The notes beneath the pieces are model-generated. The model did no database searches and was not told the DNA's origin. It saw only the letters and a program-made list of their open reading frames with translations. Below, in pieces: positions 1,510-34,463 of a stretch of 64,000 nucleotides of DNA. The stretch's first letter is position 1. Each line of letters opens with the position of its first letter. Source of the DNA: an uncultured Candidatus Saccharibacteria bacterium (GTDB lineage: Bacteria; Patescibacteriota; Minisyncoccia; Phycocordibacterales; PALSA-1337). Location: assembly GCA_964558375.1 (NCBI GenBank), contig CAZLCD010000001.1, forward strand, positions 17,091-81,090. The letters run 5' to 3'. Both the position numbers and the translations under genes were made by a program.

Positions 1510-2835
1510 TTACAAAATAAACTCTTTTATATAAGATATCAACCCCTCCACCTTTACCCTCTCCTGCTTTCCACTATCCCTATCCCTCACCGTTACTCCT
1601 TCATTTTTTTCAATTGTATCAAAGTCTATTGTCACACAAAGAGGTGTACCTATCTCATCTTGTCTTCGATATCTTTTACCGATGTTTCCATTGTCGTCAA
1701 ACACCACTCCATCTATTTCTTTACGGATCATTTCATAAATCTCGCGAGCCTTCTCTACAAGCAATGGTTTGTTTTTAAGCAAAGGAAAGATAGCAACTTT
1801 AACAGGAGCAATCTTTGGAGAAAGTTTCAAGTAAACTCTTTTCTCGCCATCTATTTCGTCTTCGGTATAAGCATCAGAGAGTACAGCGAGAACAAGGCGA
1901 TCCACACCAAAGGTCGGTTCTATACAGTGAGGGATGAATCTCTCTTTGGTTTCTTCATCAAAATACGAAAGATCTACCTTACTAGCATCTGTATGGGCCT
2001 TGAGGTCAAAGTCTGTTCTATAAGCAAGACCGAGAAGTTCCTTCTGGCCAAAAGGAAAATCAAATTCTGTATCGACACTTCTCTTCGAATAGTGCGCACG
2101 ATCTGTGTCTGGAACTTCGATTTTATGAATTTTGGAAGCAGTCAGACCGATATCTTTTAAGAAAGACATTTGATCTTCATATAAAGCATTGAAAGTTTCA
2201 TCTATTTTTTTGGAATCACGAGGATCGACAAAGTATTCTATTTCCATTTGCTCAAATTCTCTTGTGCGGAAAATAAAATCTCTAGGAGCAATCTCATTGC
2301 GGAAAGCCTTACCGATCTGTGCTAAGCCAAAAGGAAGCTTGGGATGAATACTGTCTATGATATTTTTAAAATTAACAAACATACCCTGCGCAGTTTCCGG
2401 ACGGAGATATGAGACAGAATCTTCACTTTCTGTAGCACCGACAGAAGTTTTGAACATCATATTAAATTGTCGAGCCTCGCCGAGAGCACCTTCACAATCT
2501 GGACATTTCTTGGGATCTTCGAGTTGATCCGCACGGAAGCGATGTTTGCATTTCTTACATTCAACAAGAGGATCAGAGAAGCCACTTACATGACCACTAG
2601 CCTTCCAGACACTTTGATTCATAAGTATAGAAGCGTCTACTCCGTACATATCTGCTCGATCTTTAACGAAACGTTTCCACCACAGTCCCTTTATATTATT
2701 TTTTAAATCCAGACCAAAACAAACATAGTCCCACGTCCCTGCCAACCCACCATATATTTCTGATCCCTGAAAAATAAAACCCCGCCTCTTGCAGAGTGAT
2801 ATTATCTTTTCCATCTTTGTTTCTTCTTTTTGCAT
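1510..2835 (-). CDS. glyQS: Glycyl-tRNA synthetase (alpha2 dimeric type)
   Basis: Class II aaRS motifs and strong GlyRS-like sequence ([20 protein letters not shown]-like N-terminus, Cys-rich insertion CKKCKHRF...CPDC). Confidence 0.9.
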   Translation of the reverse strand: [441 protein letters not shown]

Positions 2836-2846
2836 TTAAATTAAAA

Positions 2847-4790
2847 TTATCTCACAACCTTTTCATCTCCATCTTTGAAAGTCGGATCTGAGCCGAACCT
2901 TGTCGTCAATGGATTTAGATTACTACTTAGAGATTGATTTGTAAAATCGTCCTGACCAGTGAGAGTGGCCTGATTAACCAAAACCGGGAATTGACCAACT
3001 TGAGTAACACTTGGAGTAACTGCGACTTGGAAAGAAACCTGATGACGATTGGTAGAATTGTTAAGGGTATAAGTGCCGATATCTCCTACATTCCAAACGA
3101 TAGTTCCATCGAGTTCATTGAAACTAATATTCTCAGTTGAGGGACTAGTCTTGCCCGTCCATTTTACATGAGCAGGAATACTCGCGGTAACTTTTGCATT
3201 ACTAACCGAGCTTGAGGTATTGTCTATAGTCCAAACTATAGTATAAGTAGTCTCTTGCTCGGCTTTCGGCGGAATAGGTCCGGTGTTGGTAAAAGGACCG
3301 GTTGAGCGAATAACCTGTCCACCGATAGAGACATTTGATGAAACCTTTATATATCTTTCAGCACTAGAGGAAATCGTTTCTAATGTATCAGACTCCGAAT
3401 TCCTTTTGCCCACAACCTTTACCAAGATTTTCATATCTGGATTAATAATAAACTTTGAAGAAGAGTTGAGATTGCGAGGAATGATACTGAAGCTCACCCT
3501 GCCACTTCCGCTAGCTGGGATGCTTTTCAAATCTCTAGTGTTGATCTGATTCCAAACAATTTCATTGTCGGCAGATTTGTACAAACCTTGTTCAGGAGAA
3601 ACAGAATTTTTGTCAAAAGAACTACCGGAGAAACCTACATGAACTTCGGCATCGATAATAGGTGTAGGTAAGTTGTTAAAATATTCGATAGCGACCCTTA
3701 GAGAATTGTCAAAAGAAGCCACATATTCTTGACCATCATCATCTCCATTTAGAGATAAGCCGATATTTATAAAAGGCTTTTTGATACTAATCTCTTTTGA
3801 AGAGTTGATGTATTCGGTGCCGATAGCCTTGGTATTGGTGAGACTCTGCGCACCCGCTACAAATCGAAAGATTCGATTTTCATCATCCTGACCATCGATC
3901 TTCCCTCTTATCTTTATCACCTTCTTGCCACCCGGAGGAATGTCGCCGATTTTCCATAGAGAATTTTCATTTAATGGTTTCAAGTCCGAACTAACATAGC
4001 TAAATCCGAAAGGATAGACAGATTTTAATAAAAGATTTTTGATAATCTCCTTCGAATTTGAATTCATAGTTACCGTAAGGTCGAACTCCTGACCAGAATT
4101 AACTTCTTCAATGGAATCCACTGTCAAGGTAAGTGGAGTTGAACCTATAAGCAAATCAAAAGTCTTTTCTTTTTTAAAGATGGAAGTAGAACCTTTAACA
4201 CGATATTCTATAGTAACCTTAATTTCTTTTTTACTATTTTCTTCACCATAGACAATGGCTTGAACAGTTTTTCGACCGACTCCACCAGAAGGAATATCAC
4301 TTATAAGTTCTCTAAAATTTTTTAATTCTTTAGAGCTATCATTTGCCTCAGTTGCCCCAGCTGGGAAATCGACGATCAGGTCGACTGTTTCGAGTTTGAT
4401 ATTATTATAATTTGAAACTTGAATATCGAAGGTCACCGGCTCGCCGCCAGCCACAGATACAGGTCCGTCAATAGTAATGTCTATATTGTTCGCCGAAACG
4501 ATATTTGATCCATTGAAAACCAAGTAGGCACCCGCACTCAAAGCCAGCACAAAAAATATAATCGACCCTATAAGAATTTTTGTAAAAAATGACATGGATG
4601 TATCTTTGTAACGCTGATTAAGTTTAATTTCATCAGGAGTTTCTTCCTTATGTTCCCAGTCACTTTGAATATCTGTACTCTGTTGCTCAAAGCGAAGGCG
4701 CCTTTTGGTGCGAATATTTGGAACATTGGGAGAATAAAGCGATTTTTTTAGCTCTTCAATTCGACTCTTTTCCTCTTGATTCATATGCAC
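2847..4790 (-). CDS. Hypothetical membrane-anchored protein with large beta-rich extracytoplasmic region
   Basis: Single N-proximal TM helix (ILIGSIIFFVLALSAGAYLVF) after a charged cytoplasmic N-terminus, followed by about 550 aa rich in T/S/N/G with repeated beta-like segments. No recognisable catalytic motif. Confidence 0.5.
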   Translation of the reverse strand: MHMNQEEKSRIEELKKSLYSPNVPNIRTKRRLRFEQQSTDIQSDWEHKEETPDEIKLNQRYKDTSMSFFTKILIGSIIFFVLALSAGAYLVFNGSNIVSANNIDITIDGPVSVAGGEPVTFDIQVSNYNNIKLETVDLIVDFPAGATEANDSSKELKNFRELISDIPSGGVGRKTVQAIVYGEENSKKEIKVTIEYRVKGSTSIFKKEKTFDLLIGSTPLTLTVDSIEEVNSGQEFDLTVTMNSNSKEIIKNLLLKSVYPFGFSYVSSDLKPLNENSLWKIGDIPPGGKKVIKIRGKIDGQDDENRIFRFVAGAQSLTNTKAIGTEYINSSKEISIKKPFINIGLSLNGDDDGQEYVASFDNSLRVAIEYFNNLPTPIIDAEVHVGFSGSSFDKNSVSPEQGLYKSADNEIVWNQINTRDLKSIPASGSGRVSFSIIPRNLNSSSKFIINPDMKILVKVVGKRNSESDTLETISSSAERYIKVSSNVSIGGQVIRSTGPFTNTGPIPPKAEQETTYTIVWTIDNTSSSVSNAKVTASIPAHVKWTGKTSPSTENISFNELDGTIVWNVGDIGTYTLNNSTNRHQVSFQVAVTPSVTQVGQFPVLVNQATLTGQDDFTNQSLSSNLNPLTTRFGSDPTFKDGDEKVVR

Positions 4791-5382: not shown

Positions 5383-8300
5383 TTACCTCTCGATCTTCAT
5401 TTTAAGAGTAAGATCTCCTAGAGTGATCTGTTCTATATCTAAAGACTTAAACTCAATATCTTTTAATAAAGTTGCTTTTAGAATTGTCTCTTTATTTCTT
5501 AAAATCAAATCTGAATTGTCTTTCGATGAATCGATAGCGAGAACTACTTGATCTTTTATAGTCAAATTGCTCTCCTTCCTCAACTCCTGTATCGCTCTTA
5601 TAAGCTCGCGTACTATTCCCTTTTCTTTCAGATCTGGAGTGATGGTTGTATCCAAGACTACTTCTTCGTTAAGATTTTTATCGAAGACAACTTCTAGAAC
5701 ATTGACCTCGTCTTTTATTAACTCGAGCAAATCAGTAGGGATAGATTTCTTTATTGTAAGTTTTGATAGAGGTTGTCTGACATTGATCTTGGCTTTCATG
5801 CGCGCTTCAAGTCCTAGAGATGCCGTTATGCGCACTTCTCTCATATTTTCCAAAACACTATTATCAAATTTTGAAATCTCTGGCCAAGATTCTAAATGAA
5901 CACTTTCCTTCTCGCCCTTTAAACGAAGATAGATATCTTCTGCGATAAAAGGCATAAAAGGTGCCATCAGTTTTGTAAAATCGATAAGTATTTTTCTTAA
6001 GGTGGAAAGTGCCAAATCTCTATCACTCAAGTCTTCTCCTTTAAAACGATCGCGGGATCGACGCAAATACCAAGTCGAAAGATCGTCGACAAAATCCGCG
6101 ATAGGTCTAGAGGCTTTATCGACTTCGTATTTTGAAAGATTATCAGTGATGTCTTTTGTGATTTCATTGAGCCTTGTCATGATCCATATATCGAGAACAT
6201 GAGTACTTGCTGTATCTTTTTTAACTAATTTCTTTTCTAAAATATCAGGTGCGTACATTTCATAAAATGAAACGATATTGTTGAGACGACCGATATGTTT
6301 TTTGACGACTTCATCTACACCCTTTTCGGAAAAGGCAAAATCTTGACCCTTGACCACGGGCGAAGACATGAGGAAGTATCGAAGTGCATCAGCCCCGTAC
6401 TTATCCACCATAAGCATGAGATTTGGATAATTCTTTTTAGACTTTGACATTTTTTGACCATCTTCCGCTAGAACAAGACCGTTAACCACTACTTGTTTGT
6501 ATGGACTTTTGCCGAACAGCGCCACCCCAAGCACAAGCATGGAGTAGAACCATCCACGAGTCTGATCCAAACCTTCGGCGATAAAGTCTGCAGGATAACC
6601 CTTGGTCTTTCCCAAAATTTTACTAAATGGTCCAGGCTTTGGATTGAAGTCGCATTTGTTAAATGGATAATGTGCTTCACCGAAAGGCATAGAGCCGGAT
6701 TCAAACCAACAGTCAAAAACTTCCGGAACTCTTTGCATTTGATTGCCTTTTTCTGAAATAAGTTCTATGTCATCAATGAAAGGTCTATGAAGATCGATCT
6801 CGTATTTTTCATTGTGAGGTAAAGGATGGAAGTCGAGCTTTCTTGGTTTGGAATTTTTATTGTAATGTTCAGCTGAACCACGCAAAGCTATGGACTGCTT
6901 TTCATCCAAACCTTGCACGACGGTCTCGAGAAGGAAGAGTGGTGTATCGTGAGAGACAATTAGGATATTTTGACCCTTGTAACTTTTTTCCATATCATAG
7001 ATAAAATCCCCTACTCTCTTTTTTATATCAGTATAATTTTCACCTCCTTCAGGTGTCTGTGTAAAACGGTCTTTCTGAGCAAAGGCGTGCATAAAATCAT
7101 TGAAGTTTTTACCATTCCACACTCCAGCATTAAGTTCTGTGAGTCTATTGTCAGTTATTATCTTTGAGGCATCCAAATTAAGCTTCTTTGAAATAATTTC
7201 TGCGGTTTCTTTTGTTCTAATAAAAGGAGAAGTAAAAATTAGATCAATCTTTTTATTAGACAACCACTTGGAAGCATCGCTAGCTTGCTTTTTACCCATC
7301 TCACTAAGATGATGCGGATTGTCGGCTCGTGAACTTATGATTGCTTTTGTATTGTTTTCTGCTTCACCGTGCCTGCATACATAGTAAGTATTTCTAGCAT
7401 GACTATACTTTTTTAGATCATTTATAGAGCCTATCACCTTACACTCTTCAGTCTTGATATCCTTCCACACAGGAAGAGGTGCACCCCAGAAACGTGAACG
7501 GGAAATAGCCCAGTCTCGAGCACCGAGAAGCCAATTGCCGAACCTTCCCTCGCCCACCTCCTTTGGAACCCAGTCGATTTTTTTGTTTTCATTTACAAGC
7601 TTGTCGCGAATCGCTGTGACTTTTACAAACCAAGAAGAAGAAGCGTAGTTTAAAAGCGGAGTGTCGCAACGCCAACAATGCGGATACGAGTGAATAATTT
7701 TTTCTTTAGAGAAAAGGATATTTTTGTGAGCAAGGTATTTTATAATCTCAATATCTGCTTTTTGATGAGTTTCTATTTTATTGGCCTTATCCTCTGCTGT
7801 GTCCTTTGGCTTTACATCTTGCCCTGCAAAGTCTGTAACTTCTTTTTTGAATTTACCATCAGTACCAACATGTTGAATAAATGGCAGATTATTTTTTAAA
7901 GATAATTCATAATCATCAGCACCAAAAGCGGGAGCAATATGCACAATACCAGTCCCAGCATCTGTTGTAACAAAATCTGCTCCATAGATCTTCCATCCAT
8001 TCTGGAGATTTTTTAATTTGGCATCATCTGAATAATAATTAAAAATTGGCTCGTAAGACTGGCCGATGAGATCTTTGCCTTCTATCTCTTCGAGGGTTTT
8101 ATACTCTGTCTTTATAACTGATAGTCTGGATTGAGCAAGAATAAACTTTTCATTATTTATTTCTATCTTTATATATTTGATTGAGGGATTTATAGCCAAA
8201 GCCACATTCCCCGGTAAAGTCCAAGGGGTTGTAGTCCATGCCAAGAAAAAAGTATTCGCCTCGCTATTTTTTTCATCTTTCAATTTAAATTTAACATAGA

Positions 8301-21188: not shown

Positions 21189-21311
21189 AAAAGCTAGAAG
21201 CACAATTGTATTGTGAAGCAGACTCCGCAGGCGAGTAGTCGCCGAGGATTAAGAAGTTTTTAGCAAAAAACTTCTGGTCTGCGGAATAATACAATTGTGC
21301 TTTTAGCTTTT
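21189..21311. repeat. Structured element or MITE-like unit with 24-bp terminal inverted repeats
   Basis: aaaagctagaagcacaattgtatt (21189-21212) is the near-perfect reverse complement of aatacaattgtgcttttagctttt (21288-21311). The interior holds two further hairpins (gcga gtag tcgc; agaagttttt agc aaaaacttct). It sits in the convergent folA/rplK intergenic region. Confidence 0.4.
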
Positions 21312-33767: not shown

Positions 33768-33812
33768 AAAAATTAAAATCACCTCCTACAAAATAGAAAG
33801 TGATTTTAATTA
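33768..33812 (-). terminator. Hairpin terminator downstream of the DUF378 gene
   Basis: 9-bp stem taaaatcac...gtgatttta followed by a T-run on the minus strand. Confidence 0.4.
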
Positions 33813-33840: not shown

Positions 33841-34092
33841 CTACACTGCTGAACTTGTTTCACAGCAATCCTTACAAGTTTTCTTATGTGTAACGATAAG
33901 ATAAATAGCTGATAGACCTACTAGTATATAGACTACTTTTGCGATAACTGCAGGCAAGTATTCTACTATACCCATACCTGAAGCACCCAAACCTAGACCA
34001 ACCAATAACCAATTCAAGCCTCCTACGATAACCAAAATAAATGCAATTGTGTGTAATACTTTCATAATATTTGATAAATTATTAATAATCAA
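33841..34092 (-). CDS. DUF378-like small membrane protein
   Basis: LVIVGGLNWLLVGL motif typical of DUF378, two TM helices. The start may be the internal MKVLHT. Confidence 0.5.
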   Translation of the reverse strand: MIINNLSNIMKVLHTIAFILVIVGGLNWLLVGLGLGASGMGIVEYLPAVIAKVVYILVGLSAIYLIVTHKKTCKDCCETSSAV

Positions 34093-34169
34093 TTACTGCG
34101 ATAATTATACCATTTTACACATAGCAAAGCATAGAGGTTATACACAACTATTCAACAGTTAATCCATAA

Positions 34170-34191
34170 ATGTGCCTTCGGTAGGAATCGA
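34170..34191 (-). repeat. 22-nt duplicate of the tRNA-Arg 3' end (att-like direct repeat)
   Basis: atgtgccttcggtaggaatcga at 34170-34191 is identical to 34347-34368 (T-loop 3' part, T-stem 3' strand and acceptor 3' strand of tRNA-Arg). The 155-nt spacer is GC-rich. Confidence 0.5.
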
Positions 34192-34349
34192 GTCACAGGT
34201 CTCGGACTGACGTCCTCGCCCGCGACCCCGCCTCGCTCGATGCAATTCGCTACGCTCATATAGCATCTTCGCTCCGGCCGTTCGATTCCTACAATAAGTC
34301 ATCTGTGGTACATAAAATACCGAGATAAACTCGGCATTTTATGACCATG

Positions 34350-34421
34350 TGCCTTCGGTAGGAATCGAACCTACATCAAGACCTTAGAAGAGTCCTGTTC
34401 TATCCATTGAACTACGAAGGC
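34350..34421 (-). tRNA. tRNA-Arg (anticodon TCT)
   Basis: Minus strand GCCTTCG acceptor, D-arm GTTC-AATGGATA-GAAC, anticodon loop CTTCTAA, T-arm TAGG-TTCGATT-CCTA. Confidence 0.8.
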
Positions 34422-34463
34422 TATTAGAAGAATATACCAGTAAAATGCTAAATTTACAAAATT

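Follow-up and report, generated by a model that had tools for sequence, protein, structure and literature searches.

A candidate family of structured non-coding elements with target-derived stems beside tRNA genes in Patescibacteria

We examined the 155-nt spacer that follows tRNA-Arg(UCU), enclosed by a duplication of the 3′ end of that gene, in 64,000 nt of DNA from an uncultured Candidatus Saccharibacteria bacterium (GenBank assembly GCA_964558375.1, contig CAZLCD010000001.1, positions 17,091 to 81,090; this whole stretch is hereafter called the window). In our reading, to which we give a probability of roughly 55%, the segment is one copy of a family of small, GC-rich non-coding elements in Patescibacteria that are non-autonomous, mobile and structured, and that act as a single strand. 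The family has no entry in Rfam, searches of the literature did not turn it up, and it combines a stem derived from the target gene with an RNA-like junction core. Its members are dispersed, multi-copy and co-oriented with the host gene, and they are present at some and absent from other orthologous tRNA sites. The core is not tRNA-derived; only the stem arms are.

Family Distribution and Core Structure

Metagenomes were scanned with the pattern GCCGGAGC N(8-38) GAGGYGGGGTCGCG N(15-45) YGTGAC, which returned at least 120 loci with at least 124 copies, a set that overstates core conservation and samples one subfamily because it was gathered by an exact pattern. The family consensus is GCCGGAGC-hairpin-GCGAGGCGGGGUCGCG-hairpin-YGUGAC. 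A second scan, with the 20-mer TCGATTCCTACCGAAGGCAC and one genome per species, covered the GTDB-representative collection, which does not include the source genome of the window, and found 45 loci, nearly all of them in Patescibacteria metagenome-assembled genomes (MAGs) and each with a single exact copy. The assignment of the family to Patescibacteria comes from the MAG loci, and that of the metagenome copies is presumed. At most of the 45 loci, tRNA-Arg is followed only by RluA, tRNA-Val or a plain terminator; several hold related elements after tRNA-Arg or tRNA-Val with the sequence GAGCCGGAGC...GCGAGGCGGGGTCGCG...YGTGACC. Related elements, some with the same arm architecture around a different core, are present in L033, L050, L025, L038 and L030 (loci carry our own L numbers throughout).

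A covariance model, R1, was built from 45 family copies. On the window, cmsearch with this model gave a match at 34186–34287 on the minus strand (41 bits, E = 4.9e-11) and no other significant match within the 64 kb; elsewhere it gave 14 further matches in 12 loci, namely the relative L006 and 11 GTDB-representative Patescibacteria MAG loci. The window copy has the features by which the R1 family is defined, with GCCGGAGC, P2, GCGAGGCGGGGUCGCG, P3 with its bulged A, and YGUGAC in this order, and with the 3′ strand of the closing stem copying the adjacent gene from C56. A weak R1 match at 21224–21286 on the plus strand of the window (14.3 bits, E = 0.03), a P3-like hairpin with an AGCA loop, could be a degenerate relative or noise.

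The core is about 60–90 nt long and consists of two hairpin arms, P2 and P3, closed by a third stem, P1, that comes from the flanks. To evaluate this structure, 45 gap-free 87-nt copies were counted against a hand-written version in which P2 is GCC-GGA-[GCGC GACG GCGC]-GA-GGC and P3 is GGUCGCG...ANYA tetraloop...A bulge...YGUGACC. On this structure, which came from the same sequences that were later counted on it, 85% of the cells were paired, compared with 73% in shuffles and 35–46% in slid controls, and the covariation score was 0.383, compared with 0.169 in shuffles (0 of 500 reached 0.383) and 0.08–0.16 in slid controls. P3 is 97% paired, with both sides changed in 9 pairs. The G·U pair at columns 44–72 is invariant (45/45), as is the bulged A at column 67, and another position alternates between G·U and G-C among the 45 copies. 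The invariant G·U and bulged A together with this alternation indicate that the structure is strand-specific, belonging either to an RNA or to one DNA strand. Longer copies contain inserted modules rich in tandem G·A pairs, and the module UGAGC-GNA-GCGAA lies in P2 in the window and in P3 elsewhere.

The family is wider than the scan pattern, as there are other core types with the same tRNA-derived arms: CGGGAAAGGGGTCGGGAAAACGGCAGTTTTCCCGCAGCGGAAG follows tRNA-Arg in L136 (1555–1680), and another example lies downstream of the core in L079. Tandem copies are present in L162 and L122. In L039 (around 1780–1830, minus strand), the 26-nt unit AGAGTTGTGACCAAAAGATGCAACTT occurs three times directly after the core, the core 3′ end and its flank having been amplified in tandem. 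A hairpin of the form UGA-N5-CGAAUACUUGGAG-N5-UCA, usually found 5′ of the core in the direct class of copies described below, stands alone in L100 (about 1433, minus strand) and within P3 of another core in L122 (about 5290), and thus behaves as a separable module.

The Window Locus

The sequence-only reading that drew attention to this locus described a 22-nt duplication of the tRNA-Arg 3′ end around a 155-nt spacer, and this duplication is exact: the 22-mer ATGTGCCTTCGGTAGGAATCGA has exactly two copies in the window, at 34170–34191 and 34347–34368, with no third copy there when up to 3 mismatches are allowed and with 0 matches expected from shuffles. The 11-bp inverted repeat described with it is real, but its second arm lies at 34282–34292, one base away from where it had been placed. 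The base composition was less accurately judged. The window measures 38% GC rather than the 33% given for the genome, and the spacer, put at about 60%, has 52% GC over its whole 155 nt; a value near 60% holds for its 102-nt part at 34192–34293 (61%). This part contains the 100-nt stretch of highest GC in the window (0.62), which lies inside the 11-bp stem, in agreement with the view that the stem encloses a GC-rich core. The features of the locus are as follows.

34459–34431, minus strand: promoter-like site TTGTAA-17-TATATT (promoter scan)
34349–34421, minus strand: intact tRNA-Arg(UCU), without encoded CCA (ARAGORN; Rfam tRNA, 69.8 bits)
34347–34368, minus strand: repeat copy 1 (X1), within the functional tRNA
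34305–34346, minus strand: AT-rich hairpin with a GC-rich top, then a U-rich tail; arms 34311–34324 and 34330–34343 (inverted repeat, minimum free energy fold, terminator scan)
34293–34304, minus strand: 12-nt linker, (AG)ATGACTTATT, between the hairpin region and the left arm; one base different in L006
34280–34292, minus strand: left arm X′, GTAGGAATCGAAC, complementary to the tRNA T-loop and T-stem 3′ strand (inverted repeat, BLAST)
34192–34278, minus strand: whole conserved core, 87 nt, from GCCGGAGC to GTGAC (cmsearch)
34230–34278, minus strand: core arm P2, GCC-GGA-GC / GC-GA-GGC (covariance-model alignment, family consensus, covariation)
34191–34227, minus strand: core arm P3, GGGGUCGCGGGC, GA-GGAC-GUCA-GUCC-GA, G(A)CCUGUGAC, U (covariance-model alignment)
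34170–34191, minus strand: repeat copy 2 (X2), of which 34181–34191 is the 3′ arm of P1 and the CCGAAGGCACAT tail is unpaired

On the minus strand the order is thus tRNA-Arg, terminator-like hairpin, linker, X′, 87-nt core and X2, beyond which lies DNA orthologous to the empty site, as the comparison with L051 and L021 indicates. The 22-mer comprises, on that strand, T55 of the T-loop, the T-stem 3′ strand, the acceptor 3′ strand, the discriminator A and the trailer bases CAT. P1 is 11 bp long, 34282–34292 pairing with 34181–34191, and against the tRNA copy itself X′ has 13 nt of complementarity (34280–34292 with 34358–34370). The register of P1 is that of the family, with X′ 3 nt before GCCGGAGC and its partner from +1. 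P2 in the window has an extra distal stem, GAUGC/GCAUC, whose loop bears the UGAGC-GUA-GCGAA module with its tandem G·A, and P3 retains the invariant G·U pair and the bulged A of the family. The predicted fold of the minus strand has -80.5 kcal/mol (z = -6.3), and that of the plus strand -59.5 kcal/mol (z = -3.3). The hairpin at 34305–34346 is the trailer hairpin of tRNA-Arg, terminator-like in appearance, and the linker, from comparison by eye, takes the position of the acceptor-complement arm of other family members and is probably a degenerate form of it.

An Rfam scan of the spacer region had been suggested along with the original observation. Rfam 15 identified tRNA only, both on the window at the gathering threshold and in 34050–34450 with E up to 10, and on 13 family loci with E up to 1 it gave no match over the cores, recovering only tRNA, rRNA and tmRNA. 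ARAGORN found no tmRNA or permuted tRNA. Neither the sole open reading frame (ORF) of the insert, which runs across the element and encodes 47 aa, nor the flanking ORFs contain a relevant Pfam domain or a recombinase domain. Elsewhere in the neighborhood, a 19-bp AT-rich hairpin with a T run at 33771–33811 (minus strand), directly after the DUF378 gene and before tRNA-Val, is likely the terminator of the DUF378 gene.

Flanking Sequences and Insertion Sites

The family is closely associated with genes for stable RNAs. Of the 124 copies listed, 78 lie at most 250 nt downstream of a same-strand tRNA, with 19 isotypes represented and a median gap of 59.5 nt, and the tRNA neighbors among the matches listed are on the same strand in 95 cases vs. 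6 on the opposite strand. Contexts other than tRNA include tmRNA (L132), the 23S-5S spacer (L060, L092) and the position after the rplL stop codon (L056). Among the 124 copies listed, 45 come with an exact direct repeat that is 12 nt or longer (median 20 nt), and in 37 of them its first base follows GTGAC immediately. Where the repeat lies within a tRNA, it begins at C56 in 31 of 32 cases and ends at most 2 nt from the tRNA 3′ end in 20 of 32.

On its right, the core is followed by a direct copy of the local gene that extends from T-loop C56 to the 3′ end, and the left flank is closer to the inverted complement of the tRNA 3′ end and trailer than to a direct copy in 73 of the 78 tRNA-adjacent copies listed. 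P1 reaches 7 bp or more in 41 of 118 copies listed, compared with 8% when partners are mismatched. The intact copy around the junction reads RGGTT/CGA (the slash marks the junction), and non-tRNA sites, namely those in 5S and D-loops, fit GGT(Y)/C by eye.

Two classes of flanks can be distinguished, in both of which one gene end remains intact beside the core-bearing copy. In the palindromic class, to which the window copy belongs with its 11-bp P1 and degenerate acceptor arm, an X′-core-X hairpin follows the tRNA trailer hairpin, sometimes with an extra hairpin at the acceptor/T-stem boundary. Among the copies there are also simple ones with repeats based on the trailer. In the smaller direct class, the core is extended on its 5′ side by UGAG-hairpin-GCAAG and is embedded in a gene duplicate, partial or complete, with the intact gene copy immediately upstream or downstream. 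The two flanks of direct-class copies are contiguous in the intact gene, and the junction is without target duplication; the sites are the T-loops of tRNA-Gly, tRNA-Gln, tRNA-Glu and tRNA-Ile, the D-loop region of tRNA-Ser and the 5′ part of 5S rRNA.

The tRNA-Val and tRNA-Arg genes of L050 have no terminator between them, and the canonical copy that separates them, 20 nt ahead of tRNA-Arg, must therefore belong to the tRNA precursor transcript; empty Val-Arg spacers are 4–12 nt long. In the stretch 6730–7075 of this locus, the tRNA-Arg stands between two elements, the upstream canonical core belonging to tRNA-Val and the downstream element, before RluA, being AT-rich and decayed with the same arm architecture.

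The arrangement of a fixed scaffold followed by a target sequence brings guide RNAs to mind. In TnpB omega-RNAs, the structured transposon end is followed by flanking DNA. By analogy, the core could be a scaffold followed by an 18–22 nt guide equal to the target sequence 3′ of GGTT, with the inverted arm masking the guide and a nuclease or transposase encoded elsewhere. The roughly 20 nt that match the target directly 3′ of a fixed motif, the direct-class insertions without target duplication at the junction and the strand-specific fold would suit this idea. However, clustering of neighboring ORFs revealed no TnpB, IscB or Cas gene near the copies, Rfam gave no match of the omega-RNA type or to HEARO, the 61-nt core is short for such scaffolds, the guide would be base-paired, and the intact target adjoins, where an active nuclease would cut it. 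We therefore regard a guide-RNA-like module as very doubtful.

Gain and Loss among Relatives

The same arrangement was recovered in close relatives. In two ENA contigs, L003 and L004, the tRNA plus element is 100% identical to that of the window, and the spacer past X2 differs. In a Logan contig, L006, whose neighboring proteins are 64–82% identical to those of the window, the 176 nt after the tRNA are 96.6% identical and the spacer past X2 is unalignable. One of the five substitutions in L006 changes GGAC/GUCC to GGAU/GUCC, a C-G to U·G change under which the minus strand alone retains the pairing. Within the repeat, the trailer bases are CAT in the window (34170–34172 and 34347–34349) and CCTG in L006 (3024–3028 and 3201–3205), in each genome identical between both repeat copies, a pattern that may reflect conversion between the repeat copies or re-formation of the repeat.

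It is worth noting that assemblers struggle at this repeat, and Logan contigs break inside it, which might raise the suspicion of a chance repeat or an assembly artefact. This suspicion is refuted by the independent assembly of the same arrangement in L003, L004 and L006, in addition to which 0 chance matches are expected and the architecture is family-wide, so that an artefact is hardly credible. The Logan contigs L001 and L005 end inside the T-loop (..GGTTCGATTCCT), where the assembly breaks at the duplicated 22-mer, and loci of this family will often be fragmented in short-read assemblies. Another Logan contig, L002 (SRR17409987), encodes an identical 109-aa neighbor protein, and its adjoining tRNA-Arg(TCT) (3320–3399), in whose anticodon the contig ends, has a different 5′ half, GCCCTTG...CTGCGGACTTCT; this may be a tRNA allele replacement between very close strains. 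A homologue search with the 109-aa neighbor protein gave two clusters only.

Comparison of empty and occupied sites, which had been proposed as a check, showed that the site is polymorphic. The closest syntenic relative among the GTDB-representative loci is L051, with the gene order PilM-p182-p166-p109-tRNA-Arg-DUF378...RluA-L19 and with identities to the window of 74% (DUF378), 80% (RluA) and 88% (L19). Its tRNA-Arg is empty, with only a 125-nt spacer to DUF378 that resembles the window DNA past X2, and its tRNA-Val is occupied by a core with a 19-nt repeat. The window shows the reverse, with tRNA-Arg occupied and nothing after tRNA-Val. The tRNA-Arg site is also empty in L021 and L034, decayed copies or remnants are present in L046, L024 and L050, and of the 45 loci that share this tRNA-Arg 3′ end, only about 8 have an element of this kind.

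This distribution bears on whether the element might instead serve the host. It could be a cis-acting RNA module beneficial to the cell, acting as a processing, stability or termination signal or as a highly expressed small RNA that RNase P or RNase Z releases from precursors of tRNA or rRNA, with the core binding a cellular protein and the tRNA-derived stem merely a stable closing helix. Such a role would be in keeping with the RNA-type features (tandem G·A, ANYA tetraloops, invariant G·U and bulged A, modular hairpins), with the location in stable-RNA operons, including that between two co-transcribed tRNAs in L050 and that in the 23S-5S spacer, with the strong conservation next to diverged flanks, and with the lack of a mobility gene nearby. 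By contrast, the patchy occurrence at orthologous tRNA-Arg ends, the switch of the occupied tRNA between syntenic relatives and the existence of decayed and tandem copies do not fit a host module, and a signal would need neither a fresh copy of the local gene end nor an adjacent partial gene duplicate. Overall, we consider a host function unlikely, although more plausible than the other alternatives discussed here.

Mobility and Possible Mechanism

Several searches were directed at a protein partner.

Clustering of the ORFs around the copies revealed no recurrent transposase, integrase, reverse transcriptase, TnpB, IscB or Cas gene, and the recurrent neighbors are housekeeping genes (RluA, L19, PilM, AlaRS). 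No reverse transcriptase was present among the 9 ORFs scanned around the window locus or in the recurrent neighbor clusters, which sets aside a retron or the non-coding RNA of a diversity-generating retroelement. No HUH (Y1) transposase or REP-associated tyrosine transposase (RAYT) was seen near the copies, within the 64 kb of the source and fragments of at most 14 kb of the others. Scans of viral contigs with the window-specific core, the arm pattern and the family pattern gave 0 matches, and BLAST of a consensus copy against plasmids and phages gave none. An ORF resembling a LAGLIDADG-type homing endonuclease (motifs by eye) is present in L079 (1153–1828) and recurs in 3 metagenome loci near cores; it is probably tied to rRNA or tRNA introns rather than to the element.

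A recombinase was found in 2 of about 170 loci, L130 and, as a distant relative, L071. In L130 (7303–12830), a 5.3-kb island with a 598-aa large serine recombinase at its start (Resolvase, Recombinase and Zn_ribbon_recom domains) sits between tRNA-Val and the core element, and a 19-nt copy of the tRNA-Val end follows the core. An island of this kind, with a serine recombinase and placed at the 3′ end of a tRNA, is in its own right unusual. To the left of the element there is a third partial copy of the tRNA end, which makes a separate insertion the simpler explanation of the island. A large serine recombinase was accordingly rejected as the general mobilizer, with L130 its only case and the L071 relative distant.

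The locus could also be read as the product of classical integrase action. Integrative elements that target tRNA genes have a textbook signature, a direct repeat of the tRNA 3′ end that starts in the T-loop, and the window repeat could represent the attL and attR of a cargo-less element of this kind, similar to a cis-mobilizable element (CIME), or of one moved in trans. The polymorphic occupancy of the site and the L130 island, between tRNA-Val and a core flanked by a 19-nt repeat, agree with this explanation, and the sequence-only reading had likewise suggested the scar of an excised or decayed island. However, there is no integrase remnant between the repeats or elsewhere in the window, the island is present at 1 of the 124 copies listed, and a recombinase match was obtained in 2 loci only, in one of which the third tRNA-end copy argues for separate insertion. 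The core recurs with flanks of the local gene at 19 tRNA isotypes, tmRNA, 5S and rplL, and att integration does not give what is seen at 5S rRNA, in D-loops and at rplL, the same core as a clean insertion in partial gene duplicates. The covarying helices would also be unexpected of an att site, and, along with the 96.6% identity of the 177-nt unit to its L006 counterpart amid proteins of 64–82%, they oppose an integration scar. Therefore, an integrase event appears improbable. A miniature integrative element or small structured RNA, also raised at the outset, was the closest of the early suggestions; its proposed derivation from tRNA holds for the stem arms but not for the core.

As a non-autonomous mobile element, the segment would act as a single strand, most likely as RNA read on from the tRNA promoter, or alternatively as sense-strand DNA that becomes exposed where genes are heavily transcribed. 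RNA is favored over exposed sense DNA by the arrangement in L050, the tetraloops and the G·A motifs. Entry might take place at a hairpin loop reading ..GGTT/CGA.., at T-loop position 55/56 and at similar sites in D-loops, 5S rRNA and tRNA 3′ ends, and for an insertion to survive, a short duplication at the site would have to preserve one end of the gene. The inverted arm X′ could lock the spare tRNA 3′ end, X2, into a self-contained hairpin, and X2, being thus masked, would not compete with the real 3′ end during tRNA folding. Fold-back or quasipalindrome template switching, a known mutational route, may give rise to the inverted arm. In a related and more speculative proposal, to which we give a low probability, the core would be an RNA machine or handle that targets the exposed loops of stable RNAs or of their genes (T-loop 55/56, D-loop, 5S rRNA), either as a small self-inserting or self-processing RNA or as a guide scaffold whose copied tRNA end of about 20 nt is masked by the inverted arm.

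Several observations weigh against a mobile, single-strand-acting element. The copies have no linked transposase, integrase or reverse transcriptase, and mobility is accordingly deduced from distribution only. A terminator-like hairpin stands between the tRNA and the element in the window and in many other copies, which calls for caution on RNA expression. The target motif is confounded with the universal T-loop sequence, as RGGTT/CGA is also the T-loop consensus. The mobile-element reading leaves unexplained how the inverted arm arises anew for each tRNA, the high sequence conservation shared by the window and L006 would be expected equally of a host function and of a selfish element, and sampling by exact pattern inflates the apparent conservation of the core.

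Comparison with Known Systems

Keyword and exact-sequence searches of the literature did not find such an element described. The paper closest to the subject describes group I introns located in the anticodon loops of tRNAs from Patescibacteria; these have a length of several hundred nt, fit the Rfam group I models and undergo splicing, and introns of group II are not reported by this paper for the phylum (PMC13011429). These introns resemble the element in being extra structured RNAs associated with tRNA genes in the same phylum (PMC13011429), but the element sits at T-loop 55/56 of a spare partial copy, has no intron-model match and adjoins an intact gene. A self-splicing intron of group I or II was rejected on the same grounds, the interrupted copies being partial or decayed.

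Integrative elements at tRNA genes and CIMEs share with the element the direct repeat of the tRNA 3′ end from the T-loop, the intact tRNA, and the empty and occupied sites among relatives. Unlike them, the element has no integrase or integrase remnant and an insert of only 155 nt, it possesses a covarying core and an inverted target copy, and its core is also found in 5S rRNA, in D-loops, after rplL and within partial gene duplicates.

Also comparable are the repetitive extragenic palindromic (REP) sequences and REPINs with RAYT, and the palindrome-associated transposable elements (PATEs) derived from IS200/IS605, non-autonomous elements with single-strand hairpins, which are likewise small, non-coding and multi-copy, form strand-specific hairpins at gene ends and have no transposase in cis. 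Insertion in the direct class 3′ of a short motif, without target duplication at the junction, may be a further likeness. By contrast, the closing stem of the element comes from the local target gene and not from element-borne repeats, its core is a three-way junction with RNA-type motifs, and an intact target duplicate always adjoins. Miniature inverted-repeat transposable elements (MITEs) resemble it in size, lack of coding capacity and dispersal, but its arms vary from copy to copy and match the local gene, and there is no short target-site duplication.

Among RNAs, the small RNAs from the external and internal transcribed spacers of tRNA transcripts (3′ETS/ITS, e.g., 3′ETS-leuZ) also lie after or between tRNA genes, and the L050 copy belongs to a precursor transcript, but those RNAs are locus-specific spacers and do not form a dispersed family in which the folded core is conserved and the arms come from the target. 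The omega-RNAs of TnpB and IscB share the scaffold followed by about 20 nt identical to sequence beside a fixed target motif; the element differs from them in that no nuclease gene is linked to it and Rfam gives no match, its scaffold is far shorter, and its ‘guide’ pairs with the inverted copy. An origin resembling a primer-binding site from mature tRNA was set aside by reasoning, since the arms complement the genomic trailer and not CCA, and integron attC or Xer-type hairpin sites and hairpin-capped DNA ends were set aside by reasoning alone. Overall, the element is somewhat like REPINs and PATEs or a miniature integrative element, and it does not have the defining properties of MITEs, integrase islands, introns, retrons or any Rfam family.

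Significance

Patescibacteria have very small genomes, in which a folded non-coding element kept in many copies beside the most highly expressed genes is unexpected. The architecture is also unusual, with a junction core capping a stem made from the 3′ end of the neighboring gene, which is copied in inverted orientation on one side and directly on the other. The covariance model, the insertion point at T-loop 55/56 and the empty and occupied sites now make movement and binding testable. There is a gain for annotation as well, since copies of the family create spurious partial tRNAs and contig breaks.

To our knowledge, almost no RNA biology has been characterized in Patescibacteria, and should the element act as RNA, this group would gain a new and abundant small RNA. 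If it moved via single strands or RNA, mobile DNA would have a novel means of using essential genes as safe harbors while leaving them undamaged. Finally, if the core were indeed an RNA machine or guide, the family would constitute a new class of mobile elements that are directed by RNA and specific to Patescibacteria with their reduced genomes.

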